From an uncultured Acidobacteriota bacterium (GTDB taxonomy: Bacteria > Acidobacteriota > Thermoanaerobaculia > UBA5066), in contig CALAQS010000109.1 of assembly GCA_937888435.1 (NCBI GenBank), positions 26,039-90,038 of the forward strand: a stretch of DNA of 64,000 nucleotides. The letters are read 5' to 3'. Below, one piece after another: positions 1,013 through 63,407 of this stretch. A program made the position numbers and the translations under genes. Position 1 is the first letter of the stretch; each line of letters opens with the position of its first letter. The notes beneath the pieces were generated by a model, which made no database searches, was not told the origin of the DNA, and was given only the letters and a program-made list of their open reading frames with translations.

Positions 1013-3772
1013 TCAGGCCGACAGCCTCTCCCGCACCTTCGCGACGCCCAGCGCGAGAGCCGGCTCGATTTGCGCCGCGTCCTTGCCGCCGGCCTGCGCG
1101 AGGTCCGGCTTTCCGCCGCCCTTGCCCCCGACGGCGGGAGCCATGACCTGCGCCAGCTCGTGGGCGGAGACCCGGGCGACGAGGTCCGGCGTGACGGCCG
1201 CGAGCAGCGTGACCTTGCCTTCCAGCTCGGTTCCGAGCAGCACGACGCCGGACTTCAACTTGCTTCGGAACGTGTCGGCGAGATTGCGGAGCTCGTTCGC
1301 GGGGAGTGACGACACACGGCGAGCGAGAACCTTCACCCCCGCAATCTCCTCGATGCCATCGGTCCCGGTGCTGGGGACGTCCGAAGAGAGAGATTTCTTA
1401 GAAGGTGAAGATTCGGAGGGACCCGTTCCCGCGAGAGCAAGATCGCGTTTCAGGGTCGCGATCTCCTTCTCTTTCCTTCTAAGAGAATCCAGCGCGTCCC
1501 TCAGCTTCGAAGGAAGCTCGTCAAAGGGCACGTTCGCCGTCTGCGCCATATTCGCCAGGATTTCCTCGTCTTTCTGAAGCCGCTCGACCGCGTTCAGCGA
1601 CGTGACCGCCTCGAGGCGGCGGACGCCGGCCGCGAGGCCCTTGTCAGAGATCACCTTGAATGCGCCGATTTCTCCCGTGCGCCCCACATGGCAGCCACCG
1701 CACAACTCCGTCGAGAAGCCCAGCACGTCCACCACGCGCACGCGCTCGCCGTACTTCTCACCGAAGAACATGAGCGCGCCCTTCTTCTTCGCCTCATCCA
1801 TCGACATCACGGCCTTCGAAACCTCGCGGTCGCGCAGGACCTCCTCGTTCACGAGGCGTTCAATCTCGTGGATCTCGTCGGCGGTCGTCGGGCGCGAGGC
1901 CGCGTAGTCGAAGCGCAGGCGGTCGGGCGCGACGAGCGAGCCCATCTGCCGGACGGACTCCCCCAGCACCTTGCGCAGCGCCGCGTGGAGGAGGTGCGTC
2001 CCTGTGTGATTCGCCTGCGTCTTGCGGCGGGTCCATTCGTCGACGTTCATCCGCACGAGCTGACCGGGAGCGAGAGAACCGGAGGAGATTCTTAGAAGGT
2101 GAAGAGTGGCTTTCCCATTTGGCGCGCGCCTCGTGTCGATCACCTCGGCGACACCATCCGGAGCCCATGAAAAGGCACCCTGGTCGGCCACCTGGCCGCC
2201 GCTTTCGGGATAGAAGGTGGAACGGTCCGTGACGACCCAGCCCTGTTGGCCCGCCGTGAGGCGATCGCCACCTTCGAAGAGACCCTGCTTAGAAGGTGTA
2301 AAGAGACCGAGGACTCGTGCGCCCTCCAGGCTCACGAAGTCCTGCTCGGGATATCCGCGGAATTCGGTCGTCCACGAGGCGTCGATCTGGTCGTCCTTCG
2401 GAAGGTCGCCCTCGTGCTCGAACTTCGACGCACCCTTGCTCCGCTCGCGCGCAGCCTTGAGCTCCCTCTCGAACTCCTCTCGATCAATCTCCAAGCCTTC
2501 CTCTCGAGCGATCTCCTCTATCAATTCGAGAGGAACCCCATACGTGTCATAAAGACGGAACACGCCTCCGAGCATGGCGATTCCGGAACCTCCCGCTTCA
2601 TCTGCCGCTCGGCGATGCGCAGAAATCTCCTCGCCAACGCGATCCGCTCCGACGGACATCGTTTTCGCGAACCGAGCTTCTTCGTCTGACAGTGCGACCT
2701 GGATGAGCAGGGGCCGCTGATCCCCTTGACGTGCGTCGAAGTGGATGCCTCGGAACTCTTCGAGGATTACTGACGAGAGTCTGCTTACGACGGGCGTCTC
2801 CAGGCCGAGTCTGCGGCCATAGCGGATCGCCCGGCGAATGATCCTCCTCAGGACGTATCCCCTTCCTTCATTCGAAGGGATTACTCCGTCCAGCATCAGC
2901 ATGGTCGCCGCCCGCGCGTGATCGGCGATCACCCGGAAAGGCGCGTCCTCCACCGCCATGTTTCCCCGGTATTTCTTCCCCGAGACTTCCTCGATCTTCC
3001 TGATGATTGGTGCAAAGAGGTCCGTGTCGTAGTTGTTGTTCTTGCCCTCGAGGATCGCCGTGATGCGCTCGAGGCCGGCGCCCGTGTCGACGCTCGGCTT
3101 CGGAAGCGGGGTCATCTTTCCCGAGGCGTCGCGGTCGAACTGCATGAAGACGAGGTTCCAGATCTCCATGAGGCGGTCGCCGGCGCCGTTCGGCGTCGCG
3201 TCGCCGGGAACGCCATCGCCCTGGTCATAGTGAATCTCGCTGCACGGGCCGCACGGCCCCGTGTCGCCCATCGACCAGAAGTTGTCTTTCTCGCCGAACC
3301 GTGCGATGCGCGCCTTCGGGAGGTAGCGCTCCCACAGCGCGGCCGCCTCGTCGTCGTCCGTGAAAACCGTCGCCCAGAGGCGCGACGGGTCGAGGCCATA
3401 GCGCCCGGTGACGAGCTCCCACGCGTAGTCGATCGCCTCCACCTTGAAGTAATCGCCGAAGGAGAAGTTGCCGAGCATCTCGAAGAACGTGTGGTGGCGC
3501 GCCGTGTAGCCCACGTTGTCGAGGTCGTTGTGCTTGCCGCCCGCCCGCACGCACTTCTGTGACGACGTCGCGCGCGTGTAGGCCCGCTTCTCGCGCCCGA
3601 GGAAGAGATCCTTGAACTGGTTCATGCCCGCGTTCGTGAAGAGCAGCGTCGGGTCCTCAGCGGGCACGAGCGAGGAGGACGCCACGCGCGTGTGGCCCTT
3701 CTCTTCGAAGAAGGACAGGAACGTCTCGCGGACTTTGCGGGACGTCCAGCCGCCGGGAGGATGAGTTGCCAT
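1013..3772 (-). CDS. alaS: Alanine--tRNA ligase.
   Basis: 919-aa ORF with the class II AlaRS N-terminus (FLSFFEEKGH, FTNAGMNQFKD), the editing-domain HxxxH motifs (HTGTHLLHAAL, CGGCHV) and a C-Ala domain. Confidence 0.95.
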   Translation of the reverse strand: MATHPPGGWTSRKVRETFLSFFEEKGHTRVASSSLVPAEDPTLLFTNAGMNQFKDLFLGREKRAYTRATSSQKCVRAGGKHNDLDNVGYTARHHTFFEMLGNFSFGDYFKVEAIDYAWELVTGRYGLDPSRLWATVFTDDDEAAALWERYLPKARIARFGEKDNFWSMGDTGPCGPCSEIHYDQGDGVPGDATPNGAGDRLMEIWNLVFMQFDRDASGKMTPLPKPSVDTGAGLERITAILEGKNNNYDTDLFAPIIRKIEEVSGKKYRGNMAVEDAPFRVIADHARAATMLMLDGVIPSNEGRGYVLRRIIRRAIRYGRRLGLETPVVSRLSSVILEEFRGIHFDARQGDQRPLLIQVALSDEEARFAKTMSVGADRVGEEISAHRRAADEAGGSGIAMLGGVFRLYDTYGVPLELIEEIAREEGLEIDREEFERELKAARERSKGASKFEHEGDLPKDDQIDASWTTEFRGYPEQDFVSLEGARVLGLFTPSKQGLFEGGDRLTAGQQGWVVTDRSTFYPESGGQVADQGAFSWAPDGVAEVIDTRRAPNGKATLHLLRISSGSLAPGQLVRMNVDEWTRRKTQANHTGTHLLHAALRKVLGESVRQMGSLVAPDRLRFDYAASRPTTADEIHEIERLVNEEVLRDREVSKAVMSMDEAKKKGALMFFGEKYGERVRVVDVLGFSTELCGGCHVGRTGEIGAFKVISDKGLAAGVRRLEAVTSLNAVERLQKDEEILANMAQTANVPFDELPSKLRDALDSLRRKEKEIATLKRDLALAGTGPSESSPSKKSLSSDVPSTGTDGIEEIAGVKVLARRVSSLPANELRNLADTFRSKLKSGVVLLGTELEGKVTLLAAVTPDLVARVSAHELAQVMAPAVGGKGGGKPDLAQAGGKDAAQIEPALALGVAKVRERLSA

Positions 3773-3805
3773 CGCTCGGAGGATAAGGGGTTTCCCCCCG
3801 CCCCC

Positions 3806-5017
3806 CTATCCCGGCTGGTTCGAGAAGTCGAAGGGCGAGGCCGCTTCCTGCGAGCTGAGCGCGTCGGGCGACTCCAGGGCGCCCTCCATGAGCTCGTTCG
3901 CGATGTCGGACGTGGACTGGATGCCCTGCACCTTGAGCTTGAACTCGTTCGGGTTGCTCGAGCGCCGGATCGCCTCTTCCAGCGTGATGAGGCCCGTCTT
4001 GTAGAGCTGGAAGAGCGACTGATCGAATGTCTGCATCCCGTACTGCGAGGTGCCGGCCTTGATCGCGTCGTGGATGTACTTCGTCTTTTCCTTGTTCTCG
4101 ATGCAGTCGCGGATGTAGTTCGTCGCCACGAGCACCTCGACGGCCGGCACGCGGCCGAGGCCGTCCGCGCGCGGGAGAAGACGCATCGAGCACACGGCCT
4201 TGATGACGGCCGCGAGCTGCAGGCGAATCTGCTTCTGCTGGTGCGGCGGGAAGACCGAGATGATGCGGTTGACCGTCTCGGTCGCGTCCATCGTGTGGAG
4301 GGTCGACATGACGAGGTGGCCCGTCTCGGCGGCCACGAGCGCCGTCTCGACGGTCTCGAAGTCGCGCATCTCGCCCACGAGGATGACGTCCGGGTCCTGC
4401 CGGAGGGCCGCGCGGATCGCGGACGCGAACGAGCGCGTGTCCACCTCGAGCTCGCGCTGGTTGATGATCGATTTCTTGTCGCGATGGAGGAACTCGACGG
4501 GGTCCTCGATCGTCATGATGTGCTCGGACCGGGTCGAGTTGATGTAGTCGATCATCGCGGCGAGCGACGTGGACTTGCCCGAGCCCGTCGTCCCGGTCAC
4601 GAGAATGAGGCCGCGCGTCTCCTCGCAGATTCTCTCGAGCACGGGCGGCAGGAGGAGGTCGCGAACCGTGAGGATGCGGGCCGGGATGACGCGGCAGACC
4701 ATTCCGACCGTCCCGCGCTGCTGGAAGATGTTGCAGCGGAACCGCCCGAGCCCCGGCACCGAATACGCGATGTCGATCTCGAAGTTGTTCTTGAATTTTT
4801 CCTTCTGCCGCGAAGACATGATCGAGAACGCCATCGCGATCGTGTCTTCCTGCATGAGGCGCTTGAGGTCGACGAGCGGGGTCAGCTCGCCGTCGACACG
4901 GATGATCGGGTGCGCGCCGACCTTCAGGTGGAGGTCGGACGCCTTCCGCTCGACCGCGATCTTGAGCAGGTCGTTGATGTGCATGAGCGACCTCCGACCG
5001 TTCCGGGATTCGGACAA
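3806..5017 (-). CDS. pilT: Type IV pilus twitching-motility/retraction ATPase PilT.
   Basis: Walker A GTTGSGKST, the PilT/PilU signature and the MAFSIMSSRQKEKF N-domain. Carries a short acidic C-terminal tail beyond typical PilT length. Confidence 0.88.
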   Translation of the reverse strand: MSESRNGRRSLMHINDLLKIAVERKASDLHLKVGAHPIIRVDGELTPLVDLKRLMQEDTIAMAFSIMSSRQKEKFKNNFEIDIAYSVPGLGRFRCNIFQQRGTVGMVCRVIPARILTVRDLLLPPVLERICEETRGLILVTGTTGSGKSTSLAAMIDYINSTRSEHIMTIEDPVEFLHRDKKSIINQRELEVDTRSFASAIRAALRQDPDVILVGEMRDFETVETALVAAETGHLVMSTLHTMDATETVNRIISVFPPHQQKQIRLQLAAVIKAVCSMRLLPRADGLGRVPAVEVLVATNYIRDCIENKEKTKYIHDAIKAGTSQYGMQTFDQSLFQLYKTGLITLEEAIRRSSNPNEFKLKVQGIQSTSDIANELMEGALESPDALSSQEAASPFDFSNQPG

Positions 5018-5109
5018 GAATAAGGCTTTCAGGCACTTGGGTCAACGCGGGGGTGACATCATTAACACGATCCCGCTGTATATTTCGGGGGCGCTGAGGG
5101 AGGACGACG

Positions 5110-9295: not shown

Positions 9296-10036
9296 GTGCG
9301 CGTCTCCGGAGTGCTCCTCGCGGCCGGTGCGTCCACGCGCTTCGGTTCGCCGAAGATGCTCACGCCGGTCGGCGAGGACAGAAAGCCTTTGCTTCAGAAG
9401 GTCTGCGAGACGTGGCTGGAAGCGGGAGTCGGCGAACTCATCGTCGTTCTGGGAAAGGATGCGGACGCGATTCGAGAGCGCCTCGGAGATTTCTCATATG
9501 CGGCGGCTGCTGATGCAGCCGCCGATAGCAGAAAATCTGGTGGCCGGAAGCCGGCTGTCAAGGGCGCGCGCAGCGCGCCGCTCCGCGGTCAAAGACCCTT
9601 GACAGCCGGTTTCCGGCCGCACATCCCGCGATTCGTCCAGAATCCCCGCTGGGAGGCAGGGATGTTTTCTTCTGTGAAAGCGGGCCTCGCCGCGACGGCC
9701 GCCAACTCGACGCACATCGCCCTCTCCCCTGCGGATCTTCCCTTTCTCAGCAAAGAATCCATTCGAACGGTGCTTTCGGCAGTGGCGTCACTCGATGCAG
9801 GCGGATCGAGCCTCGTCGTCCCCACGCACGCCGGCCGGCGCGGGCACCCGCTCTTGATCCCCGCGGCGCTGCGCTCGCGGCTCCTCTCATGGCCCGATTC
9901 CGCGCGGCTCAACCAGCTCTTCGACGAGCCCGACGTCACGGTCCACCCCCTCGAAGGTTTCGACGAGACGATTCTTCGCGACGTCGATACGCCGAACGAT
10001 CTCTTCGCGTCTCTTCCATCCTCTTTTTCCTTCTGA
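9296..10036 (+). CDS. MobA/MocA-like molybdenum cofactor nucleotidyltransferase (probable cytidylyltransferase) with an internal low-complexity insertion.
   Basis: N-terminal LLAAGASTRFG nucleotide-binding motif and NPRWEAGMFSS motif. A 40-aa Ala/Arg-rich insert is encoded by two DNA hairpins (9501-9524, 9542-9618). GTG start. Confidence 0.78.
   Translation: MRVSGVLLAAGASTRFGSPKMLTPVGEDRKPLLQKVCETWLEAGVGELIVVLGKDADAIRERLGDFSYAAAADAAADSRKSGGRKPAVKGARSAPLRGQRPLTAGFRPHIPRFVQNPRWEAGMFSSVKAGLAATAANSTHIALSPADLPFLSKESIRTVLSAVASLDAGGSSLVVPTHAGRRGHPLLIPAALRSRLLSWPDSARLNQLFDEPDVTVHPLEGFDETILRDVDTPNDLFASLPSSFSF
9501..9618 (+). repeat. Two consecutive in-frame hairpin-forming inverted repeats inside mocA (10-bp perfect stem at 9501-9524, and a 23-bp arm inverted repeat at 9542-9564/9596-9618 around a GCGCGC palindrome).
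   Basis: CGGCGGCTGC tgat GCAGCCGCCG, then GGCCGGAAGCCGGCTGTCAAGGG ... CCCTTGACAGCCGGTTTCCGGCC (22/23 complementary). Together they encode the AAAADAAADSRKSGGRKPAVKGARSAPLRGQRPLTAGFRP insert. Confidence 0.8.
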
Positions 10037-10060
10037 GAAATCCTATTCTCGTCTCTCCCC

Positions 10061-10849
10061 ATGAGTAGCCGACTCCTCACAGAACTTCCCGCCCTCCTGG
10101 AGAAGCAGGGCCGCGTCGCCATGGCGACCGTCGTTTCGGCCGTGGGCTCGACGCCGCGCGAAACGACCGCCCGGATGCTCGTCCTAGCGGACGGATCGAC
10201 CGTAGGGACGATCGGGGGCGGGAAGTTCGAATCGCTCGTTGTCGCGGACGCACGGAAGCTCCTCGACTCCCGCGGCCTTCCTTTCACCCGCGACTACGAC
10301 TTCGTGCCGACGGGAGAGAACTCTTTCGGCGCGGTCTGCGGCGGAACCGCCACCGTCCTTCTCGAAGTCGTCGAGCGCGCGCCGCATCTCCTCGTCGTCG
10401 GCGCGGGCCACTGCGGGCGCGCGCTCGCGCGCGTCGCGCGCTTAACGGGATGGGACGTGACCGTGGCCGACGAAAGGTCCGCGCAGCTCGATCCGGCAGC
10501 GTTCCCGGAGGGAGTGCGGCTGGTGCAGGTGAAGGACGATTACTCGGATCTGCCCCTCCCCGCTCCGCTCGACTCGGTCGCCATCGTCTCGCGCGGCCAC
10601 GTGACGGACGGACAGGCGTTCCGGCGCCTTCGCGGCGTTCCGCTCGCGTATCTCGGGATGATCGGCAGCAAGGCCAAGCGAAAGGCCCTCTTCGACGAGC
10701 TGCGTGCCGAGGGGTTTTCCGAGGAGGAGCTCGCCCGGGCGCACAGCCCCATCGGCCTCCCTATTGGCGCCGAGTCGCCGGAGGAGATTGCCATTTCAAT
10801 CGTCGCGGAGCTCATCGCCAGCCGGCGCGGGGCCGGCGACCGGAGGTGA
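10061..10849 (+). CDS. XdhC/CoxI-family molybdoenzyme maturation factor.
   Basis: XdhC_CoxI N-domain (ATVVSAVGSTPRETTARM) and a Rossmann-like C-domain (LLVVGAGHCGRALA). Confidence 0.85.
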   Translation: MSSRLLTELPALLEKQGRVAMATVVSAVGSTPRETTARMLVLADGSTVGTIGGGKFESLVVADARKLLDSRGLPFTRDYDFVPTGENSFGAVCGGTATVLLEVVERAPHLLVVGAGHCGRALARVARLTGWDVTVADERSAQLDPAAFPEGVRLVQVKDDYSDLPLPAPLDSVAIVSRGHVTDGQAFRRLRGVPLAYLGMIGSKAKRKALFDELRAEGFSEEELARAHSPIGLPIGAESPEEIAISIVAELIASRRGAGDRR

Positions 10850-12357
10850 GAGGCCTTCCGAAGCCCCGCGGCCGCGTCCTCATCCTTGCCGCCCTCTCCG
10901 CCGCGGCGTTCGCGTACGCCGCAGTCCGAGCGGTCCGGGTCCCGATCGTCCACGACGAAGCCCTCACGTACTTCCTCTTCGTAGCCGGGCGGCACGCCGG
11001 CCCCCTCGCCCCCGGCTTCGAGGCGAACAATCACTTCCTGAACTCCGTCCTGACGGCAGCGTCCCGGCAGCTCTTCGGGGAAGGCGAGGTGGCTCTCCGG
11101 CTTCCGAATCTCCTCTCCCTGCCCCTCTATCTCGCGGCGACGGCGCACCTCGCTCTCCGACAGCGGACGGCCGCGCTCACGGTGGCGGCGTTCCTCCTCC
11201 TCAACGGCAGCGCCTTTGCCCTGGAGTTCTTCTCACTCTCCCGCGGGTACGGCCTGGGCCTCGCGTTCCTCGCGTCGGGCGTGGCGCTGTTCGTCGACGC
11301 TCTCGAAGGACGGGGAGCCGCGACGGCACGGGCGGGTCTCGCGTTCCTTTGTCTCGGGCTCGCGTCGCTCGCAAACCTCTCTTTTCTCCTTCCGCTCGCG
11401 GCCGCCGTGGCGGCCGGGACCGCCTTGGAAGCGTGGCGACGATTCGCGCGCAGCCGCCCGGGAGCTCCGGCCCTCCGCGAAACGCCGTCCCTCCTCGTCC
11501 CTCTCACGCTGTCCCTTCCGTTCCTGATCGTCCTCGTCCCGTACGCGACAGAGATGTCGCGAAAGGGCGGATTCAGCATGGGGGGCTCGAGGGGCCTCTG
11601 GTCCGACACCGCCGTCTCCCTGCTTGCCGTGCTCCGGAACCTCCCGCCCGAGGAGGCGCCCCGCGCTCCCCTCCTGGAGGCGGTCCTCGCCGCGGTTCTT
11701 CTCCTCCTGGCCGTAGCAGTCCTCGTCCGGCCGGGCCGGCTCTCGCCCCTTTCTCTCGTTCCGGCCTCCCTCCTAGCCCTCACGGCGGCGGGCATCGAGC
11801 TGGCAGGCCGACTCCTCGGCGCCCGGTATCCCGTCGAGCGGGCCGCTCTCCCGGTCCAGTTCCTTTTCCTCGCGGCGGCGACCGGCGTCGCGGGGGACTG
11901 GGTCGCAAAGAGGAGATCGGGCTGGAAGCCGGCCTCCGCCGCCGCACTTATTTCGGCGGCTCTCGCCGTCGTCGCGTTCGCCGCCGCCGCCGGGACTACG
12001 CACACCCTCCTTTGGCGATACGACGCCGACAACCCCCGGATGCTGGACGACCTCGACCGGGCGCGCCGCGAGCGCGGCTTCGCCCGACCCGTGCGCCTCG
12101 GGATCACCTGGCTCATGGAACCGTCGATCAACTACTACCGCTTCCGCCGCGGTCTCGACTGGCTCCTCCCCGTGACCCGGCGCGGCCTGGCGGACCGGGA
12201 CCCGGATTTCTGCTACTGGACGCCGAAGGACGACGACGTGGCCAGGGCTCTCGACCTCGCGGCGCCGACGGTTTATCCCGTCTCGGGGAACCGCCTCGCC
12301 GCGCGCGGTCAGGCCCGCGCGGGGACTGCAGCGTACACCGGCGTGAGCCAGCCATAG
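10846..12357 (+). CDS. Polytopic membrane protein, GT-C (ArnT/PMT, GT39/83-like) glycosyltransferase fold candidate.
   Basis: GTG overlapping the xdhC stop. Has 10 or more hydrophobic segments and an HDEALTY DE-motif in the first loop. The 3' end overlaps the convergent ilvE by ~49 nt, so the exact end is uncertain. Confidence 0.55.
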   Translation: MRGLPKPRGRVLILAALSAAAFAYAAVRAVRVPIVHDEALTYFLFVAGRHAGPLAPGFEANNHFLNSVLTAASRQLFGEGEVALRLPNLLSLPLYLAATAHLALRQRTAALTVAAFLLLNGSAFALEFFSLSRGYGLGLAFLASGVALFVDALEGRGAATARAGLAFLCLGLASLANLSFLLPLAAAVAAGTALEAWRRFARSRPGAPALRETPSLLVPLTLSLPFLIVLVPYATEMSRKGGFSMGGSRGLWSDTAVSLLAVLRNLPPEEAPRAPLLEAVLAAVLLLLAVAVLVRPGRLSPLSLVPASLLALTAAGIELAGRLLGARYPVERAALPVQFLFLAAATGVAGDWVAKRRSGWKPASAAALISAALAVVAFAAAAGTTHTLLWRYDADNPRMLDDLDRARRERGFARPVRLGITWLMEPSINYYRFRRGLDWLLPVTRRGLADRDPDFCYWTPKDDDVARALDLAAPTVYPVSGNRLAARGQARAGTAAYTGVSQP

Positions 12358-13317: not shown

Positions 13318-14070
13318 TCAGGCGAGATCGACCAACCGCGCGAGCGCCACGACCACGGCCGTCTCGAGCCGGAGAATGCGGGGGCCCAGCGAGAGGAAGA
13401 CCGAAGATTTTTCTGCGAATGAGGAGAACTCGGCCGGAGTAAACCCACCCTCGGGGCCGATGGCAACGACTACGCCGAGGAGCGGCGCGAACGAGGCGAT
13501 GTGCGCTTCCCCGGGGTCCGCGACGATCAGGGTCTCCCCACTTAAACCTCCGAGAAATTCTTCGGTGCTCTTCGGACCCTCCACGAAGGGCACGATCGTC
13601 CGGTCGCACTGCTTCGTCGCCTCTTCCGCGATCCGGATCAGCCGCGGGATCCTCTTCGAAAGCGCCGCGACGTGAGAGCGCTGCGAGCGCTCGGCGTCGA
13701 GGAGAACGAAGCCTGCGGCGCCGCATTCCGTGCCTTTCTCGATCGCCCATTCGACGCGCGCGGGCTCGGCGCACGCAAGGAGCACCGTCACGCTGTTCGC
13801 GGGCTCACCGGGAAGAAGAGAAGGCGAAGAGGAAGACTCCTCAAATGAAAGATGGGCGACCGCCGTCCCGCTCCGGGTCAGCTTTCCGCGCGCCCTGAGG
13901 CCCTTTCCGTCGAGCACGACGACCTCGTCGCCATCGCGCAGCCGTCGGGATCGGACGTGGTCTTTCTCTTCCCTTCTAAGAAGAATTTCGTCCTCTTCGG
14001 GCGCGGCCCTGTGCGCCGCCAGCTCCGGCACGAGCACGCGCGGCGGGCGCGCGAGGAGGTTCTCACCCAT
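13318..14070 (-). CDS. rsmE: 16S rRNA (uracil1498-N3)-methyltransferase RsmE.
   Basis: RsmE-family PUA-like N-domain and SPOUT C-domain (VVVAIGPEGGFTPAE). Confidence 0.82.
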   Translation of the reverse strand: MGENLLARPPRVLVPELAAHRAAPEEDEILLRREEKDHVRSRRLRDGDEVVVLDGKGLRARGKLTRSGTAVAHLSFEESSSSPSLLPGEPANSVTVLLACAEPARVEWAIEKGTECGAAGFVLLDAERSQRSHVAALSKRIPRLIRIAEEATKQCDRTIVPFVEGPKSTEEFLGGLSGETLIVADPGEAHIASFAPLLGVVVAIGPEGGFTPAEFSSFAEKSSVFLSLGPRILRLETAVVVALARLVDLA

Positions 14071-14938
14071 TCGAAGAAATCCATGCCGACCCGAACCACT
14101 CGTTTTCCGTCAGAGAACGAAGCTGACGAAAGCCGCCTTTCGAAAGCAATCCTTCCCACTCTTCTCTTCTCTCGACGAGCTGGCCGGAGCACAGCAGCTT
14201 CCCCTCCGGCGCGAGGCGTACGCGCAGCGCCGGAAGGAGTGGCCCGATCTCTTCGTGGATCATGTTCGCGACGATGACGTCGAACCGAGCCTCGTCACGT
14301 AGCGCCTGGATAGGACCGGCGAATGCGCAAAAGCGCGGAATACCGTTCGCGCGCGCTTGCTCGCGCGTCGCGAAGGCGGCGTGAGGGTCGACGTCGAATG
14401 CCACGACGTGGCGTGCGCCTTCCAGCGCGGCGACGAACGCGAGCGTCCCGGTTCCGCAGCCCGCGTCGAGGACGCGCGCGCGGCGCAGGTCCTCCGAGAG
14501 AAGGAGACGCACGGCGAGACGTGTGGACTCGTGCGAGCCGGTCCCGAAGGCGCGAACGGCCGGAAGAAAGAGCCGGCGAACGCCCGGCGGCGGCGCCGTG
14601 GCGAGATCGGCGTCGTGGGGGTCGAAGAGATAACGGTCCACGAGGACGGCTCTCCGAAGGGCGGCCGACTCGGCGACCCAGTCGGTGGATTTTTCTTCGA
14701 AGGTGGAAAGGCCGCAAGCGCCGAGCGCAGCGAGTCCCGTCAGGGCAGCCTCCAGGTCACGCGGCTCGACCCAGACGAGGAGCTTGCCGTCCGCCGCGAC
14801 GGTGGACGAGAACGAAAGTCCCCCTAACCCTTCTAAGAAATCCCCATGGTTCTCTTCGAACCTGGCGGCCAGTTTCGCGGGGACTTCGATACGAGTCGCC
14901 TGTGCCATGACCCAGGAGAACCGGGGGGAACACTCCAT
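14063..14938 (-). CDS. prmA: Ribosomal protein L11 methyltransferase.
   Basis: PrmA SAM-binding motif VLDAGCGTGTLAFVAALEGA and DVDPHA. Overlaps the rsmE start by 8 nt. Confidence 0.82.
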   Translation of the reverse strand: MECSPRFSWVMAQATRIEVPAKLAARFEENHGDFLEGLGGLSFSSTVAADGKLLVWVEPRDLEAALTGLAALGACGLSTFEEKSTDWVAESAALRRAVLVDRYLFDPHDADLATAPPPGVRRLFLPAVRAFGTGSHESTRLAVRLLLSEDLRRARVLDAGCGTGTLAFVAALEGARHVVAFDVDPHAAFATREQARANGIPRFCAFAGPIQALRDEARFDVIVANMIHEEIGPLLPALRVRLAPEGKLLCSGQLVERREEWEGLLSKGGFRQLRSLTENEWFGSAWISSNG

Positions 14939-14964
14939 GTCGCGTTCCCCCCGGCGCCCCTCTC

Positions 14965-16086
14965 CTACGTGCCAACGAAATCCTTCAGCCGCTCGAAGAA
15001 GCCCTTCTCGTCCTTTGTCGGCGTCCCCGACTCCGACCCAAACGCGTCCGCGAGCTTCTCCACCGCGTCACGCTGCGCGGCGTTCATCTTCTTCGGCACG
15101 CGCACGGTGAGGAGGACGTGCTGGTCGCCCTTGCCGCGGCCGTCCAGGCGCGAAATGCCTTTCCCCTTGAGCGTGAAAACGCGGCCCGCGGCCGTTCCGG
15201 GCGGCACGTCGAAGCTGGCGTCTCCGTGGAGTGTCGGGACGCGCAGCGTGCCGCCGAGCGCCGCGAAGTGGAACGGCACGGCCCAGGTGAGAACCACGTC
15301 GAAGCCGTCGCGCCGGAACTGCTCGTGCGACGCGACCGACACGAACACGTAGAGATCGCCGGGACGTCCGCCCCGCCGGCCCGAGTTGCCCTCCCCGGTG
15401 AGACGCAGCCGCGCGCCGTCGTCCACACCGGGGGGGATCGCCACCGTGAGCGTTCGCGCGCGGCGCGTGCGGCCGTCGCCACGACACTCGGGACACGGGT
15501 CCTTGACGCGCTCGCCGGAGCCCTCGCAGTCGGGACACGGGCGGGCGAGGGCGAAGAAGCCCTGCCGGTACTGGACGCGGCCCTGGCCCCGGCACGTCGG
15601 GCACGTGGCGGGCGCGGCCCCGCCGCGGCCTCCGCGCCCCTCGCAGGCATCGCAACGTTCGTGGCGCTGGATCGGGAGCGAAACCTCCGAGCCGAAGGCG
15701 GCGCTCTCGAAAGAAAGGGTGACCTCGGCCTTCAGGTCCTCGCCGTTGCGCCGGCCTCCACGCGCGTCTCCCCCCGCCGCGAAGCCGAACAGGTCGCCGA
15801 GAATGTCGGCGAAGTCCACGAACTGTGTCGGGTCGAACCCCGGGCCGCCCGCGCCCCGTACCCCATCGTGCCCGAAGCGGTCGTAGCGCTCTCGCTTTTC
15901 GGCGTCCGAAAGGACGGAGTAGGCCTCGGCCGCCGCCTTGAACTTCTCTTCGGCGCCCTCGTCCTCGGGGTTCTTGTCGGGATGGTGCTTCAGCGCCGCC
16001 CTGCGATAGGCGGCCTTGATCTCTTCGGTGGAGGCGGTTCGCCCCACACCGAGAACCTCGTAGTAGTCGCGAACGGATGTACTCAC
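14965..16086 (-). CDS. dnaJ: Molecular chaperone DnaJ.
   Basis: J-domain with HPD (KHHPDKNP), a Gly-rich region and four CxxCxGxG zinc-finger repeats. Confidence 0.95.
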
Positions 16087-16109
16087 GGCAGACTGCTACG
16101 GCGCGGGAG

Positions 16110-17960
16110 TCAGGCCGGTTTCTCCGCGCCGTCTCCCCGCCGCTCCTTGGACTCGGGCTTGTAGAGCATGGCCTGCGTGAGAATGCGCGAAACGCCTTTC
16201 ATATCGATCATCGCGTCGTCGATGGGACCCCGCTCCTCGCCCGTCAGGACCTCGCGCGCGTTCTCGAGCGTGCGCTGGACGCGGTCCTTCTCATCGGGCT
16301 GCAGGAGGTTACCGAACTCGCGAAAGATGCGGTCGTTCCCCGCGATCATTCCCTCGAGCTTGTTCTTCAGCTGGCGCAGCTCCTTGCGCTTCGTGTCGGC
16401 CGCCTTGTTCGCGGCGGCCTCCTCGATGATCTTCTCGATCTCGGTCTGTGACAGGCCGCCGGCCGGATTGATTTGAAGGCCTTGCGCCTTTCCCGTAGCC
16501 AGGTCCTTCGCCGATACGTTCACGATTCCCGAGGAGTCGATCGCGAACGTGACCTCGATCTGGGGGACGCCTTTCGCCGCCGCCGGGATGCCGACGAGCT
16601 GGAACTTGCCGAGGGATTTGTTCTCCTTGGCGATGTCGCGCTCGCCCTGCAGGACGTGGATCTCGACGGTCGTCTGGTTGTCCGCGACCGTCGTGAAAAT
16701 CTGCGTGTTCTTCGTCGGGATCGTCGAGTTGCGTTCGATGAGCTTGACGAAGATGCCCCCGTGCGTCTCGAGGCCGAGCGAAAGCGGGGTGACGTCCAGA
16801 AGAACGAGGTCCTTGATGTCCCCTCGCAGGACGCCTGCCTGGATCGCGGCGCCGACGGCCACGACCTCGTCCGGGTTGATCGAGCGGTTCGGCGGCTTCC
16901 CGAAGATCGTCTCGACCATCTGCTGGACCTTCGGCGTGCGCGTCTGACCGCCGACGAGGATGATGGTATCGACCTGCTCGGGCTTGAGGCCGGCCGCTTC
17001 GAGGGCGTTTCGGCACGGGCCCTCGGTGCGCTGGATGAGGTCGGCCGCGAGCGCCTCGAACGTGTCGCGCGTCAGGAGCTTGTTGATGTGCTTGGGGCCT
17101 GAAGCGTCCGACGCGATGAACGGGAGCGCGATCATCGTCTCGAGCGCCGTCGACAGCTCGCACTTCGCCTTCTCGGCGGCCTCCTTGAGCCTCTGGAGCG
17201 CGAGGCGGTCCTGTCTCAGGTCTATGCCCGTCTGCGTCAGGAACTCGGCGAGAAGCCAGTCCATGATGGTCCGGTCGAAGTCCTCGCCGCCCAGGAACGT
17301 GTCACCCGACGTCGCGAGCACCTCGAACATGCCGTTGTCGATGCGCAGGATCGAGATGTCGAACGTGCCGCCGCCGAGGTCGTAGACGGCGATCGTCTCC
17401 TGCTTGCGGTTCTTCTCGAGCCCGTACGCGAGCGCGGCCGCCGTGGGCTCGTTGATGATGCGGAGCACCTCGAGGCCCGCGATGCGGCCCGCGTCGCGCG
17501 TGGCCTGGCGCTGGGAGTCGTCGAAATAAGCCGGGACCGTGATGATCGCTTCCTTGATCTCCTCGCCGAGCGCCTCTTCGCAGAATTCCTTGATCTCGCG
17601 CAACGTGAACGAAGAAATCTCTTCGGGCGAATAGTCCCGGTCGCGTACCTGGATCTTCACGTCGCCGTTCGGAGCTTCGACGAGCGCATAGGAAAGGTGC
17701 TCGCGCGCGTGCTTGACGTTGGCATCCGACATCTTGCGACCGATGAGCCGCTTCACGGCGTAAATCGTCTGCGTCGGATTCGTGATCGCCTGGCGCTTGG
17801 CGATCTGGCCGACGAGCCGCTCGCCGTCTTCCGTGAAGCCCACGATCGAAGGCGTCGTCCGGGCGCCCTCGCGGTTCGGGACGACCTGGGGCGAGCCGAC
17901 TTCGACGACGGCCACGCACGAATTCGTCGTGCCGAGATCGATGCCGAGAACCTTACCCAC
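16110..17960 (-). CDS. dnaK: Molecular chaperone DnaK (Hsp70).
   Basis: 616-aa ORF with Hsp70 signatures ([22 protein letters not shown]). Confidence 0.97.
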
Positions 17961-17975
17961 GTGGCGCCTCCTGGC

Positions 17976-33727: not shown

Positions 33728-33812
33728 CCCCCTATTCCCTTCTAAGTAACTTTGCAGACCGTCACCCGTCGCTCGGACGCCCGAATTCCCGCACGGGTCC
33801 GAAGCAAATCAG

Positions 33813-55502: not shown

Positions 55503-56678
55503 CTAAACGAGGAGCGAGAAGACCTCGTTCGACAGGAGCACGCCGCGGCGCGTGAGGCGCACGCGCCCGTCGGCGCGCTCCAATAAGCCCGCCACAAAGG
55601 TGTCCTCGAGGCGAGAGATCGATTCGGACGGAAGAAGAGACGAGATTTCTTCGAAAGTGTCGGAGGGGACTCCGCTCGACAGGCGCAGGCCCAGCATCAA
55701 TCCCTCCTTACTTCTGGGAAGATCTTCCTGTTCCTCTTCGGACGTCGCGACGGGCGAGATGCCCTCCCGCGTGCGCCGGAGGTATTCGGTCAGCATTCCC
55801 GTATTCGCATAGCGCTTTCGTCCGTCGTACGAGTGCGCCCCGACGCCGAAGCCGAGAACGGGCGTGAGCGTCCAGTACTTCAGGTTGTGCCGGCTCTCGA
55901 ATCCCGGCCGCGCCCAGTTCGAGAGCTCGTAGCGCGGCACGTCCACCGCCGTCAGGCGCTCGTCCACTGCCTCCCACCGGTCCGCCATCTCGTCGTCATC
56001 CGGGAAGAGCTCCGGCCTCTCCTTCTTCAGGGCGACGAGGCGCGGCGCCTTGTCGATCTCGAGGAGATAGACGGAGAGGTGCGTCACTCCCGCCTCGAGG
56101 AGCCCGTCGACGCTCGCGAGCAGAGTCTCACGCGTCTGTCCCGGAATGCCGATCATCAGGTCGGCCGAGACGTTCCCGAAAACGCGCGCGGCTTCCGACA
56201 CGGCCCGACGCGCGGCCGCGGCGTCGTGCCGCCGCTCCAGGGGAAGGAGCTCGGCGTCCACGAGCGACTGCACGCCGATGGAGAGCCGGTTTACCCCGAT
56301 TCCCCGAAGGGCTAGCAGCCGGGAGACATCGAGGTCGTCCGGATTCGCTTCGACCGTTATCTCAACATTCGAAGAAATTCCGAAGACTTCTTCGAGGGTC
56401 CCTAGCACGCGGCCGAGCCGGAGCGGATCGACGTACGAAGGGGTTCCTCCACCGAAGTACACGGAGTCGAATCCCCTGATCGCGGCAAGAGCGCCCCCCG
56501 AGGCCTCTACCTGCCTCGCGCGGATCTCCCTCTCCACCCCTTCAAAGAAGTCTCCCTCTTCTCTTTTCCCCTCTTGCGCGATGAACGAGCAATATGTGCA
56601 GCGGTGCGCACAGAAAGGCACGTGGACGTACGCGCCGGGCGCGCCGGTTGCGCCCCGCGGGAGGCCGTCAGCGGTCAC
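55503..56678 (-). CDS. hemW: Radical SAM heme chaperone HemW (HemN-like).
   Basis: CxxxCxxC radical-SAM motif (CAHRCTYCSF) and a HemN C-domain. Confidence 0.85.
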   Translation of the reverse strand: MTADGLPRGATGAPGAYVHVPFCAHRCTYCSFIAQEGKREEGDFFEGVEREIRARQVEASGGALAAIRGFDSVYFGGGTPSYVDPLRLGRVLGTLEEVFGISSNVEITVEANPDDLDVSRLLALRGIGVNRLSIGVQSLVDAELLPLERRHDAAAARRAVSEAARVFGNVSADLMIGIPGQTRETLLASVDGLLEAGVTHLSVYLLEIDKAPRLVALKKERPELFPDDDEMADRWEAVDERLTAVDVPRYELSNWARPGFESRHNLKYWTLTPVLGFGVGAHSYDGRKRYANTGMLTEYLRRTREGISPVATSEEEQEDLPRSKEGLMLGLRLSSGVPSDTFEEISSLLPSESISRLEDTFVAGLLERADGRVRLTRRGVLLSNEVFSLLV

Positions 56679-57349: not shown

Positions 57350-57359
57350 CCCGCGAATC

Positions 57360-59412: not shown

Positions 59413-59441
59413 CGACCTCCGAGACTAGCAGGACCCGAGGC

Positions 59442-59792
59442 TCACGAGACCTCGGCGACGAGGCGCGCGCGGGCCTCGTCGAGCCGTGCGCGCGCGGCGT
59501 GCGGCTCGCCGCCACCGTCGAAGACGACGAGGACGAAGTAGCCCGCTTTCACGTGAGTCGTGAGAATTCGCCGGCTCGCGAACTGGAACGAGAGATCGGA
59601 GATCTCGCCGAGGCCCGAGCGCTCGGCCGCGCGGCGCAGCTCTCCCAGCCATACGGACTGGTAGGCTCCGAGAACTTCCGTCGCGCTCTTCCCGCCCACG
59701 CGCGCGATGATCTCGCCCTGCGGGTCGATGAAGGCCGCGCCCAAGGCGCCCGGAGCGTCGAGAAGACCCTCGAGCGCGTCCGCGAATCTCAT
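59442..59792 (-). CDS. Roadblock/LC7-domain (MglB-like) protein.
   Basis: 116-aa alpha-beta-beta-alpha-beta pattern (LGAAFIDPQGEIIARVGG ... YFVLVVFD). 4-nt overlap with the upstream TPR gene stop. Confidence 0.65.
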   Translation of the reverse strand: MRFADALEGLLDAPGALGAAFIDPQGEIIARVGGKSATEVLGAYQSVWLGELRRAAERSGLGEISDLSFQFASRRILTTHVKAGYFVLVVFDGGGEPHAARARLDEARARLVAEVS

Positions 59793-60592: not shown

Positions 60593-62319
60593 GCAGAGGC
60601 CTTCAGCGGAACCTCTTCCCCGAGGAACTCGAAGTCGCCGGAATTCCACGCCTTGTCGAGCGCGGCGATCACCGCCGGGTCGAACGATTTTCCCGCGAAG
60701 GAGATGATCTGGGTGATGACGTAGGTGAGCGGCATGGCCTTCTGGTAGGGACGCGTCGTCGTCATCGCGTCGAAGGTGTCCGCCACGGCTACGACCCGCG
60801 CGACGAGCGGAATGCCCTCGCCCTTCAACCCGTCCGGGTAGCCCCCGCCCGTCCATTTTTCGTGATGGTGCTTGATGCCCGGGATGATGTCCTTGAGCTG
60901 CGGAATCTGGCCCATGATGAGCGCGCCCTTGGCCGGGTGCGTCTTCATGATCTCGAATTCCTCGCTCGTGAGAGCCGTGGGCTTCCTCAGGATGCGGTCG
61001 TCGATGCCGATCTTGCCCACGTCATGGAGCAGCGCGGACAGCCGCACCACGCGCACCTCCTCCGGGGAGAGGTCCATGTGGCGCGCGAGGACGACGGCAT
61101 ACCGGGCGACCCGCTCCGAGTGGCCGCGGGTGTACGGGTCTTTCGCGTCGATCGCGGCCGCGAGCGTGCGCACGGAGTTGATGAACAGCTCCTGGTTCTC
61201 TTTCGCCGCGCGCTTGAGCCTGTCGACCGACTTTTCGATCGAGTCGGACATGGAGTTGAACGTCTCGGACAATTCCGCGAGCTCGCGCACGCCACGGACC
61301 TCGACCCGCTGCTTGAAGTTGCCCTCGGCGATGGACCGAACCTTCGCGACCAGCTCGACGAGCGGGTGCGCGAGCAGGCGCGCGGCCACCAGCGCGACGA
61401 GGCCGGCGAACAACAGCGAAAACACGGCGAGAAGAGAAGATGCCTTCTGCATCTGCGCGACCGACGCGTAGGCCGCCGCCTCGTCCTTCTCCACGATGAC
61501 GCCCCAGTCCGGCGTCGGCATCGTCGCGAGCGTGCCGAGGACGCGCCGCGCCGTCTTGCCCTCGCCCCGCATGTACGATTTCGTGATCCGGACCGGATGC
61601 GCGATGAACTCGCTCACGAGGTCGAGGTAATGCACGTCCTTCGAGCGGAAGGCCGAGGCATCACTCGACAGGATGAGCGTGCCCGACCGGTCGACGACAT
61701 ACGCGAGGACGCCGCCCTGCCCTGCCTCTTCGAGCTTTGCCTTGATGAACTTGAGCGAGAGCAGCGCCTCGACGACGCCGATCGGCTCCTGGCCCTCCGC
61801 CGGCCGAACAGGCACCGCGAGGACAAGCGCGCCATCCGGCAGGGACCGGGGGAAGATCGGGTCGGCCACGTAGGCGTCGCCGCGCATCGCGGCGTTGTAG
61901 GCCTGGCGGAGCGGACGCTCCACGTCTGGGTCGAGCGCCACGGAATCGGCTTCCGACGCGACGCCGTCACGATCGAGGGCGCGCAGCACCGGGAAGCTCG
62001 ACTCGGCGTCGGCGTACTCGCGCAGCAGCTGCTTTTTCGAAAGGTAGAAGAAAGGATCCGTGGACATCGAGCTCGCGAGCCGGATGCCGTCCGCGATCTT
62101 CTTGAGCTGCGATTGGGCGTTCGTGATGTAGGTGTCGAAGCTGTCGGCGAGCGTCACCGAGCTGTTCTTCAGGTACTTCTTCTCGGCCGTTTCGAGAGCG
62201 TCCCGGTTGATCCGGATGAGGTTGAAGTGCAGGAGGGCGAGGGGGACGATTGAGACGAGGACCAGCGCGACGAGCAGAGCCGTCACAATCCTCAGGCGCG
62301 GAACCCGGGCAACACCCAT
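60589..62319 (-). CDS. Membrane sensor HD-GYP phosphodiesterase (periplasmic Cache-like domain, TM, HAMP, HD-GYP).
   Basis: Two TM helices flank a periplasmic sensor region. HAMP (LVAKVRSIAEGNFKQRVEV). HD-GYP motifs HSERVARYA, LLHDVGK, HHEKWTGGGYP. Confidence 0.85.
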   Translation of the reverse strand: MGVARVPRLRIVTALLVALVLVSIVPLALLHFNLIRINRDALETAEKKYLKNSSVTLADSFDTYITNAQSQLKKIADGIRLASSMSTDPFFYLSKKQLLREYADAESSFPVLRALDRDGVASEADSVALDPDVERPLRQAYNAAMRGDAYVADPIFPRSLPDGALVLAVPVRPAEGQEPIGVVEALLSLKFIKAKLEEAGQGGVLAYVVDRSGTLILSSDASAFRSKDVHYLDLVSEFIAHPVRITKSYMRGEGKTARRVLGTLATMPTPDWGVIVEKDEAAAYASVAQMQKASSLLAVFSLLFAGLVALVAARLLAHPLVELVAKVRSIAEGNFKQRVEVRGVRELAELSETFNSMSDSIEKSVDRLKRAAKENQELFINSVRTLAAAIDAKDPYTRGHSERVARYAVVLARHMDLSPEEVRVVRLSALLHDVGKIGIDDRILRKPTALTSEEFEIMKTHPAKGALIMGQIPQLKDIIPGIKHHHEKWTGGGYPDGLKGEGIPLVARVVAVADTFDAMTTTRPYQKAMPLTYVITQIISFAGKSFDPAVIAALDKAWNSGDFEFLGEEVPLKASA

Positions 62320-63407
62320 CCGACCGTATTGTACCGCGCAAGAACGCCCTCGAATGCCTCCAGGAGCTCGGCCGCCTCGGCCCGCACGAGCACGGCCCGC
62401 CCGGGCCGGGCGAGGAGTACGGCCCTGAGGCCGACCCGATCGGCTTTCTTGTCGGCGCGAAGTAGCGCGGCGACGCGGAACACTGCGGCGGCGGAGGGCC
62501 GCGGCGCCTTGACGAGGCGGACGACGCGCCCCGCGAGCGCCTCGGCCGTCCCCCGCGGGAGCCCTGCGCGCTTCACCGACAGGTGCAACGCCGCGAGCAG
62601 TCCCCAGGCGACGGCTTCCCCGTGCTCGAGGCGGTGTCCCGACGCCGTCTCGAGGGCGTGACCCACGGTGTGTCCGAGGTTCAGGGCCGCCCTCTCTCCC
62701 GTTCGTTCGAACGGATCGAGCGTCACGGCGCGCGCTTTCACGCCCAGGGACCGGCGCACGGCCTCGGAGACGGCAGCCGGTTCGCGGGCGGAAAGAGGCG
62801 CCTCGAGACGCGCCATCGCGCGGTGGAAGCCCGCGTCGAGCATCGAGGTCTTCACGACCTCCGCGAGGCCGGAGCGATACGCGCGGAGCGGAAGCGTCAC
62901 GAGCGCCGACGTGTCGACGACGACGAGGCGCGCCGGATGGAATGCGCCTGCGAGATTTTTCCCCGAGGGAAGGTCCACGGCCGTCTTGCCGCCGAGGGCG
63001 CTGTCGGAGGCCGCGAGGAGCGTCGTGGGAGCCTGGACGACGGCTACGCCGCGCAGCGCGAGAGCGGCCGCGAGCCCCGCCACGTCGCCCACCGTTCCGC
63101 CTCCCAGAGCGACGACGCCCCCGTCCCGCCGAAGCCCGCGCCGGACGAGCTCCTCGAGGAGGCGGCCGAGGACGTCCCACGTCTTGGCGGCCTCGCCATC
63201 TGGGACGAAGAGGGGCTTTGGATCCAGCCGATCTCCGCCTCCAGCGAGAAGCGAACCGCCATGCAGGAGAAAGACCTTCTTAGAAGAGATGAGGAACCAG
63301 CGCCCCGGAGCGATGTGGCGCAGCCGCCTATCCAGCCCGGCGTAGGCCCCCTTGCCGACGAGCACGTCGGTGCGGGCCCCCGCCGCGACGAACGAGAACC
63401 GACGCAC
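62292..63407 (-). CDS. aroB: 3-dehydroquinate synthase.
   Basis: Rossmann GGGTVGDVAG and metal-binding His motifs of the DHQS family. Confidence 0.9.
   Translation of the reverse strand: MRRFSFVAAGARTDVLVGKGAYAGLDRRLRHIAPGRWFLISSKKVFLLHGGSLLAGGGDRLDPKPLFVPDGEAAKTWDVLGRLLEELVRRGLRRDGGVVALGGGTVGDVAGLAAALALRGVAVVQAPTTLLAASDSALGGKTAVDLPSGKNLAGAFHPARLVVVDTSALVTLPLRAYRSGLAEVVKTSMLDAGFHRAMARLEAPLSAREPAAVSEAVRRSLGVKARAVTLDPFERTGERAALNLGHTVGHALETASGHRLEHGEAVAWGLLAALHLSVKRAGLPRGTAEALAGRVVRLVKAPRPSAAAVFRVAALLRADKKADRVGLRAVLLARPGRAVLVRAEAAELLEAFEGVLARYNTVGWVLPGFRA

Follow-up and report, generated by a model that had tools for sequence, protein, structure and literature searches.

The 64,000-nucleotide stretch analysed here (hereafter the window; contig CALAQS010000109.1, positions 26,039 to 90,038, of an uncultured Acidobacteriota bacterium of the Thermoanaerobaculia, UBA5066) contains a short AT-rich word that recurs inside and directly in front of alaS, prmA, rsmE, aroB, a redoxin/TlpA-like gene (tlpA) and several other genes. 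We found that this word is the core of an asymmetric element of about 30-45 nucleotides (nt), and that it is a real and clade-specific signal at the level of the nucleic acid, matched by no curated family. The working unit is usually two facing copies 80-200 nt apart. The element looks like an undescribed regulatory signal. The window has a GC content of 64-71%, and the metagenome-assembled genome it comes from is about 68% GC.

The octamer CTTAGAAG/CTTCTAAG occurs eight times in the window, at 1397(+), 1476(-), 2091(+), 2288(+), 13973(-), 14830(-), 33739(-) and 63279(+). Dinucleotide shuffles gave a mean of 0.44 and a maximum of 3, with none of 100 reaching eight, and a third-order Markov model gave 0.36. 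The word is thus over-represented about 20-fold, which bears out the first-pass annotation of this DNA, where exactly eight copies had been set against fewer than one expected. Seven copies of CTTAGAAGG were observed for 0.12 expected under the third-order Markov model, and when all 7- to 10-mers of the window are ranked without bias, the word comes first at every length; the shuffle, Markov and k-mer counts together rule out chance or composition as its origin. With up to one mismatch, TTCTTAGAAGG is matched 13 times in the window (0.28 expected); exact matches number four, one fewer than the five 11-mers reported earlier. The one-mismatch copy of the earlier report is present at 33656, and its looser relatives are present near 9391, 10029, 14066-14082 and 56539. 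A second form, the C-form TTTCTTCGAA, is as recurrent as the A-form (five observed, 0.30 expected; 14066-14082, 14687-14706, 34471-34490, 55642-59 and 56366-81). The C-form and the further alaS sites at 2268-2281 and 2858-2881 are new to this analysis. The eight exact copies are clustered, with four neighbour distances below 1 kb (P=0.003 by simulation), and they are split 4:4 between the strands, with no Chi- or KOPS-like replication strand bias.

When independent copies are aligned in one orientation, the element opens with box 1, (C/T)CGAAGAG, passes through a purine run of 0-20 nt to the core GATT(T)-CTT[A/C]GAAGG, and ends in a purine box that is G-rich and lacks C for about 8 nt (for example TAAGAGGGG, AATAGGGGG or GAAGAG), so that the purine-rich flanks described earlier are indeed present. 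Orthologous sites may carry either the A-form or the C-form. Neither CCTTCGAAGG nor TTCTAGAA, both perfect palindromes, is enriched (no copy in the window), and TTCGAA alone is enriched only 1.4-fold; the selected object is therefore the asymmetric word, and a methylase or very-short-patch repair acting on TTCGAA is ruled out by the same low enrichment. Copies are read as LRR, FLEG, PSK or LLR, that is, in all four stop-free frames, as the first-pass annotation had indicated in proposing a nucleotide-level signal. The use of four frames together with the non-coding copies rules out a peptide motif. The earlier gene assignments (alaS, rsmE, prmA, the redoxin/TlpA-like gene and aroB) are correct; these genes and the copies in the window are as follows.

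1013-3772, minus strand: alaS gene.
13318-14070, minus strand: rsmE gene.
14063-14938, minus strand: prmA gene.
32441-33727, minus strand: redoxin/TlpA-like gene.
62292-63407, minus strand: aroB gene.
1390-1411, plus strand: alaS s4, amino acid (aa) ~790, antisense A-form arm GAGATTTCTTAGAAGGTGAAGA in a lineage-specific linker insertion of 13-19 codons.
1463-1490, minus strand: alaS s3, aa ~764, sense arm GGATTCTCTTAGAAGGAAAGAGAAGGAG, an in-place substitution that faces s4 at 79 nt.
2084-2106, plus strand: alaS s2, aa ~559, antisense arm, with no indel relative to the outgroup (HLLRISS vs HHVKVEE).
2268-2281, minus strand: alaS aa ~502, sense C-form arm CTCTTCGAAGGTGG, which can pair with s1 (8-nt loop) or s2 (~170 nt).
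2283-2305, plus strand: alaS s1, aa ~493, antisense arm.
2858-2881, minus strand: alaS aa 297-305, sense C-like copy ATCCCTTCGAATGAAGGAAGGGGA, in synonymous positions of (V)IPSNEGRG only.
10020-10043, minus strand: 3' end of a mobA-like gene, variant GGATTTCTCAGAAGGAAAAAGAGG, antisense to that gene.
13540-13566 (approximate), minus strand: rsmE site D, nt ~510, sense, with a degenerate copy in the window (GAAGAATTTCTCGGAGG) and exact copies in many relatives.
13962-13988, minus strand: rsmE site B, nt 90, sense arm.
14066-14082, minus strand: prmA 3' end, sense C-form GGATTTCTTCGAATGGG overlapping the rsmE ATG.
14687-14706, plus strand: prmA nt ~240, antisense C-form arm GGATTTTTCTTCGAAGGTGG, kept in most of 13 genomes.
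14819-14845, minus strand: prmA site A, nt 101, sense arm GGGGATTTCTTAGAAGGGTTAGGGGGA.
33652-33673, plus strand: tlpA-like codons ~22-28, antisense arm, variant CTTAGAAA.
33728-33752, minus strand: tlpA-like 5' untranslated region, sense arm.
34471-34490, plus strand: internal to mgsA, antisense C-form copy.
55642-55659, plus strand: 3' part of a hemW-like gene, antisense C-form arm, with a degenerate sense partner at 55702-55724(-).
56366-56396, minus strand: hemW-like gene, nt ~290-320, a local hairpin of antisense-like CTCGAAGAAGTC followed by sense C-form GGAATTTCTTCGAATG.
56528-56554, minus strand: hemW-like gene, nt ~135, sense variant CTTTGAAGG.
63273-63294, plus strand: aroB nt ~121, antisense arm, whose sense partner in relatives lies in the aspS-aroB leader.

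The alanyl-tRNA synthetase (AlaRS) of the window is identical to one encoded on a JGI metagenome contig, and the relatives are labelled as Thermoanaerobaculia/Acidobacteriota metagenome-assembled genomes (those that must be told apart are cited as L002 and so on). We found the word at the same alaS positions in species-representative genomes whose AlaRS is 77-81% identical (L002, L003, L004 and L011). It is present neither in alaS of genomes whose AlaRS is 67-70% identical (L005-L012 range) nor in any distant genome, and the sister group (AlaRS about 68-70% identical) has GC-rich codons at the element positions. The element is therefore specific to a sub-clade.

Within that sub-clade the nucleotides of the element are under selection at synonymous sites. 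Codon alignments were made for alaS with 7 genomes and for prmA with 13; the mean A/T fraction at third codon positions is 0.16-0.20, and in alaS conserved A/T-ending codons form islands at aa 298-303, 341-345, 500-505, 555-564, 760-769 and 785-796. All of these islands are copies of the family, as are both well-covered islands of prmA; a third prmA island lies at the poorly covered N-terminal edge of the alignment. Third-position identity at conserved residues of the four-fold type is 0.50-0.69 among carrier genomes and thus close to saturation, so that the rare codons of the element persist against drift. The copy at alaS aa 297-305 illustrates this most directly, as the invariant catalytic-domain peptide is written ATC CCT TCG AAT GAA GGA AGG GGA in 6 of 7 carriers and with CCG/GCC/AAC/GGC/CGC codons in the sister clade, even where the peptide is identical. 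At other sites the protein has been altered to fit the word (QHHVKVEEG to LHLLRISSG; LRDG to LRRK), and some sites come with small insertions, namely the 13-19-codon SPSKKSLSS linker segment of AlaRS and the variable poly-Ser of RsmE, which arises from an expandable purine run. The small in-frame inserting element that the first-pass annotation had entertained thus accounts for the alaS aa 790 linker, an N-terminal extension of a xanthine-dehydrogenase-like protein (xdh) and the rsmE poly-Ser region, and fails at the other sites, which are without indel or purely synonymous.

We modelled the core with nhmmer and mapped matches from ~35 syntenic contigs onto the window; the distribution described here rests on the window together with ~85 kb of additional syntenic DNA. 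In about 35 related contigs the element is found at matching positions of the genes, and these positions fall into ~17-20 orthologous site classes.

alaS: 7 site classes.
prmA-rsmE: 7 site classes (dnaJ-prmA leader, +101, +245, the prmA/rsmE junction overlapping the rsmE ATG, and rsmE +90, +230 and +510).
N-terminus of the large xanthine-dehydrogenase-like subunit (xdhL): a pair.
mobA-like gene: 2 site classes.
tlpA-like start: a pair.
aroB: 1-2 site classes.
aspS: a pair.
hemW-like gene: several site classes.
pepA / recN-like junction: 1 site class.
hisS: 1 site class.
TPR-PGM intergenic region: 1 site class.

In relatives the mobA-like gene has a sense copy ~275 nt upstream of the antisense copy at its 3' end, and at the prmA/rsmE junction 11 of 13 genomes retain a copy of the TTCGAAT type and the other two have a variant. 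No sites were found in hrcA-grpE-dnaK-dnaJ, secA, guaB or the pilT-like gene, in the window or in the syntenic contigs. The poorly conserved genes at 19.8-25 kb of the window are also free of them, as is the greater part both of the 10 kb beyond alaS and of the ~85 kb of additional syntenic DNA. Four tlpA loci of relatives, 17-21 kb each, have sites only at tlpA, and two of these genomes have none.

This hot-spot distribution counts against an evenly spread, uptake-signal-like word, which the first-pass annotation had listed first among its candidate explanations: copies are limited to hot-spot genes and are missing from many adjacent stretches of 10-20 kb. The DNA uptake sequences (DUS) of Neisseria and the uptake signal sequences (USS) of Pasteurellaceae are short, asymmetric, lineage-specific and strongly over-represented words; they are found within genes, on either strand and in more than one frame, and some form inverted pairs. 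Related species have them at common positions, proteins are altered to accommodate them, and they occur about once per kb, fairly evenly across the genome. The present word resembles them in being asymmetric, lineage-specific, intragenic, used in several frames, paired and common to relatives in position. It differs in its hot-spot genes separated by gaps of 10-20 kb, in its conserved context of 30-45 nt, in its preference for head-to-head pairs at 80-200 nt and in being sense-only beside start codons. As the even density of about one copy per kb is absent from the window and the syntenic sequence (clustering P=0.003), we reject a DNA uptake sequence. The sole competence-related neighbour is the gene for a PilT-like ATPase.

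Among inverted neighbours less than 300 nt apart, 10 are head-to-head and 2 tail-to-tail (in alaS, prmA, rsmE, tlpA, xdhL, aroB, aspS and hemW). In the head-to-head geometry the G-rich boxes point inward. The distance within a pair has a median of ~140 nt, compared with ~620 nt to the next site, and the pairs are spaced as follows.

alaS s3/s4: 79-133 nt.
alaS aa 502/s2: ~170 nt.
prmA +101/+245: 135 nt.
rsmE B/C: 133-139 nt.
tlpA: 83-122 nt.
xdhL: ~75 nt.
aroB: 170-202 nt.
aspS: 157-173 nt.
hemW: two pairs.

Both inverted pairs of the first-pass annotation are among them, spaced 79 and 83 nt from core to core; the wider rule that facing pairs make up the general unit, and the sense-only leader copies abutting start codons, were not part of it. 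The two xdhL arms are present together in L002, L003, L219, L237 and L239 and absent together in the window, L203, L205, L216 and L238, and at the second arm HTLSKKIS stands in place of KTTVMEVE, the length being unchanged.

Copies in 5' untranslated leaders are sense in 5 of 5 loci and lie just upstream of the start codon. At tlpA the leader copy is present in the window, where the core ends 11 nt before the ATG, and in L247; at prmA it is present in L217-L219, 11-12 nt from the start; at aroB in L248 and L249; and at the pepA / recN-like junction in L248. The fifth locus is the prmA/rsmE junction, where the sense C-form overlaps the rsmE start. The pattern at tlpA, prmA and xdh predicted a sense arm at the aroB start of relatives, and such an arm was found in both relatives examined, in which the aspS-aroB spacer of 70-90 nt is nearly all purine run and GATTTTCTTAGAAGGGGGAGAGGGGAAGGGC-ATG, and the antisense arm at +146 of aroB is conserved as well. 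In the window this spacer is deleted, with the aspS stop codon 1 nt from the aroB GTG. Other genes of the window have canonical Shine-Dalgarno sequences of the GGAGG type, so the word is not simply the ribosome-binding site of the organism, and a general Shine-Dalgarno sequence is ruled out.

The facing arms have the potential to fold. When 12 sense-to-antisense units were folded as RNA, the minimum-energy structure paired both arms in 11 of 12, with z-scores against dinucleotide shuffles of -2.1, 0.07, -1.6, -4.0, -0.5, -3.2, -0.8, -1.5, -1.8, -0.25, -2.8 and -1.3. The best of these is -4.0, and the mean of -1.6 below the shuffles is what is expected of any inverted repeat. At tlpA a 31-nt inverted repeat (33652-33673 with 33728-33752), 74% complementary, covers the Shine-Dalgarno sequence and the AUG, and for L248 aroB one long predicted stem takes in both the leader arm and the Shine-Dalgarno sequence. 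That every arm conforms to the family consensus suggests a factor recognising the word, and not pairing alone.

We propose, tentatively, that the element is a paired cis-element that acts in the transcript as a leader or early-coding hairpin and is recognised through the shared word by a putative trans-acting factor; we put this possibility first and hold it at less than even confidence. The purine-rich sense arm, in many cases located in the leader of an operon-internal gene immediately ahead of its Shine-Dalgarno sequence and start codon, would base-pair with the pyrimidine-rich antisense arm in the early coding region, and the resulting long hairpin would enclose or sequester the translation start or form a double-stranded RNA target, setting the translation or the stability of the carrier genes. 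A shared factor, which could be a small RNA, an RNA-binding protein or a nuclease, would read the arms and join the genes into one regulon. We infer such a factor because every arm in every gene keeps the same word, and not just any complementary pair.

The proposal has parallels in leader hairpins and RNA thermometers (the rpoS leader, which small RNAs open; ROSE and fourU), in that a leader arm by the Shine-Dalgarno sequence or AUG pairs with a downstream pyrimidine-rich segment and would hide the start at tlpA and aroB; the shared word could let one small RNA control many targets. It differs from them in that most copies are intragenic and some are far from starts, in that the arms are conserved as a word with no covariation and no Rfam match, and in that any regulation by the predicted folds is putative. 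A bolder version, in which one universal complementary 'address' pair, written into the leaders of many operon-internal housekeeping genes (alaS, prmA, rsmE, aroB, aspS, hemW, tlpA and xdh) and, through the choice among synonymous codons, into their coding regions, places them all under a single small RNA or word-specific protein that opens, closes or cuts the hairpins, is as a joint claim improbable. If true, it would amount to an intragenic code spanning a regulon, for which no precedent has been described.

Several observations weigh against the hairpin proposal. A head-to-head pair is identical when read from either DNA strand, so orientation alone proves no role in RNA, and the pair preference cannot separate RNA from DNA; for the same reason we dropped the order 'sense arm first' as a polarity relative to transcription, since only the sense-only leader copies bear on strand. 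Inside coding sequence, sense (~14) and antisense (~13) copies are equally common. Several well-conserved copies are without a nearby partner (alaS aa 300, rsmE D and hisS), and pairs vary among close relatives, tlpA having none in L244 and L246 and the xdh pair being absent from the window. Some of the fold z-scores are near zero. RNAalifold on 12 rsmE B/C sequences gave no covariation (covariation term +0.55), and the flanks of partner arms are no more complementary than those of arms from unrelated loci (12.4 vs 13.9 of 36 positions). No Rfam family matches the element: in the window only a tRNA passes the gathering score, and the permissive matches are unrelated and elsewhere. The sole tRNA, Leu(CAA), is unrelated as well, which removes a tRNA link. 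Finally, no trans-acting factor was identified.

A close rival, somewhat doubtful in our judgement and akin to the nucleoid- or regulatory-protein site listed in the first-pass annotation, is a double-stranded DNA site for a clade-specific binding protein (a regulator, roadblock or architectural protein), in which each arm is one asymmetric site and head-to-head pairs at 80-250 bp are bridged, much as in looped operator pairs with one operator inside a coding region. Each copy by itself fits an information-rich asymmetric consensus of at least 11-14 nt, at any locus, in any frame and on either strand, and the near-equal orientations inside coding sequence, the single conserved copies and the lack of covariation between partner arms all suit such a protein. 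A head-to-head preference would be natural if it dimerised, and the gain and loss of copies among relatives resembles binding-site turnover. However, most sites are far from any recognisable promoter, deep in alaS or at operon-internal junctions without a -35/-10 match; a search for sigma-70 promoters gave no matches at the sites in 13-20.5 kb, and inspection of the non-coding copies by hand revealed no consistent -35/-10. A rigid protein site would not be expected to have purine runs of differing length or a box 1 at differing distances from the core, the leader copies are sense in every locus, and no candidate protein was identified. The Streptomyces parS clusters and the internal operators gal OI and lac O2 are comparable in that codon choice preserves specific, AT-richer sites within coding sequence, in some cases as distant pairs for looping, but those are palindromes bound by dimers, whereas the present site is asymmetric, has variable purine flanks and has no known binding protein.

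We consider it unlikely that the element has no function for its host genes and reflects mutational or molecular drive, whether as a short selfish repeat spreading from master copies by gene conversion or templated patch repair, its inverted partners arising by template switching, or through biased uptake or repair. Some spread of copies by duplication or conversion is nonetheless likely from sequence comparison, given that very similar copies occur at unlinked loci and that a 73-nt insertion in hemW of L248 duplicates an arm. The 25-nt CGAAGAGAGAGATTTCTTAGAAGGT is identical in alaS s4 of the window and in the unlinked rsmE C of L228, and over ~44 nt the TPR-PGM intergenic copy of L239 closely resembles its counterpart at rsmE D in that genome (roughly 40/44, judged by eye), with a 3' box common to rsmE C. 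Some sites come with small insertions and expandable purine microsatellites, and presence or absence varies among close relatives, as drive would have it. Against this, the sites are confined to few genes and missing from poorly conserved neighbours; they have outlasted synonymous divergence that is close to saturation, and some are present in most of the 13 genomes or in all of them; and many are without indel or target duplication. No transposase is linked to the sites, and viral contigs gave only chance matches: a broad pattern scan was swamped by them (at least 120), and a stricter pattern returned three in low-GC phages.

The same evidence separates the pair from known mobile repeats. Rickettsia palindromic elements (RPE), the Correia elements of Neisseria and REP/REPIN doublets (repetitive extragenic palindromes) are similar as repeats inside open reading frames (ORFs) that add short peptides and whose inverted arms may form mRNA hairpins, but here the sequence between the arms is native and locus-specific (the PUA domain of RsmE, EVGLAG of XdhL), many arms are without insertion and some are purely synonymous. 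Insertions are involved only at s4, the xdh N-terminal extension and the rsmE C region, and no conserved full-length element, target duplication or transposase was found for this word. The unit is therefore not a miniature inverted-repeat transposable element (MITE), and insertion of a MITE or RPE as the general origin is rejected, as alaS s2, s3, aa 300 and the second xdh arm arose without indel. REP/REPIN sequences are ruled out in turn, since most copies are intragenic, the units are not palindromic and the window has no transposase domain. An intragenic invertible segment (recoding inverton) is rejected because simulated inversion brings stop codons into 5 of 6 testable units. The HIP1 octamer of cyanobacteria (GCGATCGC) and other highly iterated palindromes are likewise octamer-scale words that are kept in coding regions against codon usage at orthologous positions; HIP1 is a perfect palindrome spread genome-wide, whereas the present word is asymmetric (partly palindromic, TTCTnAGAA), clustered and paired, and its asymmetric consensus, GATTTCTT[A/C]GAAGG, rules out a HIP1-like palindrome. 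In the literature searched, the word string matches only primers and STAT sites, and nothing relevant was found on repeats or motifs of Thermoanaerobaculia.

Translational pausing is a very improbable explanation. The word makes two to three consecutive rare codons (CTT-AGA-AGG, CCT-TCT-AAG, CTT-CTA-AGA or TTC-TTA-GAA), the rare A/T-ending codons are conserved at the sites, and several sites are near codons 20-40 or in linkers and domain borders, where pauses at domain boundaries or after signal peptides might aid folding or targeting; but selection for rare codons would not yield the same word of 11-14 nt in four frames and on both strands, and it leaves the copies in untranslated leaders and intergenic sequence unexplained.

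If functional, the element would be a clear case of strong synonymous-site selection in essential bacterial genes that is not for translation speed, and of a shared nucleic-acid signal overlaid on the coding sequence of many unlinked genes; experimental genetics is almost absent from this phylum. The defined word, its pairs and its target genes would then provide a handle for finding a new regulator, be it a small RNA, an RNA- or DNA-binding protein or a nuclease, in uncultured Acidobacteria, and codon-usage and dN/dS analyses of the clade would be distorted at element sites. A selfish or drive-borne repeat would, for its part, be unusually small for its kind and would rewrite conserved proteins where they stand.

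Several neighbouring features of the window deserve mention. The complete HrcA-type heat-shock operon hrcA-grpE-dnaK-dnaJ-prmA-rsmE occupies 13318-19753(-), with only 57 nt between hrcA and the divergent gene, yet no site in the window matches the CIRCE/HrcA operator TTAGCACTC-N9-GAGTGCTAA, even when 3 mismatches are allowed. Neither dnaA nor parAB genes are present in the window. Upstream of alaS, the 33-nt gap to the pilT-like gene (3773-3806) reads GGGGGGCGGGGGGAAACCCCTTATCCTCCGAGCG-ATG, a G/C hairpin and CCTCC (anti-Shine-Dalgarno-like) right before the start, with no Shine-Dalgarno sequence; in L239 a recX gene stands at this position.

The 709-aa ORF at 33813-35942 that contains mgsA is an artefact of open frames in GC-rich DNA. 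MgsA of relatives has 452-472 aa, with a separate TPR gene upstream, and the true start in the window is probably near 35190. The mgsA-tlpA junction (33727-33813) exists as two alleles, a long one (window and L247) with an 86-nt spacer and an N-terminal region longer by ~28 codons, and a short one (L244 and L246) in which the tlpA ATG overlaps the mgsA stop codon (ATGA). Their distribution does not track TlpA identity, which suggests recombination or repeated loss.

Between an xdhC-like gene and a class IV aminotransferase gene, a segment of ~1.5 kb (10835-12318) encodes a protein of ~500 aa without Pfam match. It is present in the window and, judging from gene order, probably in L237 and L238, and is absent in L002, L203, L205, L216 and L219, which join window position 10818-10835 directly to 12318, a presence/absence polymorphism. 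In L246 (9408-12154) secA is a 193-aa C-terminal fragment beside a 444-aa ORF without Pfam match, which may reflect either an inserted element that disrupted the gene or a fault in the assembly.

Other words are enriched in the window as well. The palindromic 8-mers ATGCGCAT, ATCCGGAT and GTGCGCAC are over-represented relative to the third-order Markov model (8 vs 0.73, 10 vs 1.2 and 12 vs 2.4 on both strands, ~5- to 11-fold) and dispersed, for example at 12808, 27548, 52595 and 60149, and at 13631, 45101, 46067, 62210 and 63710. The enriched word ACATCAAC is always sense, in the codons GAC ATC AAC, so that its enrichment probably reflects codon usage.

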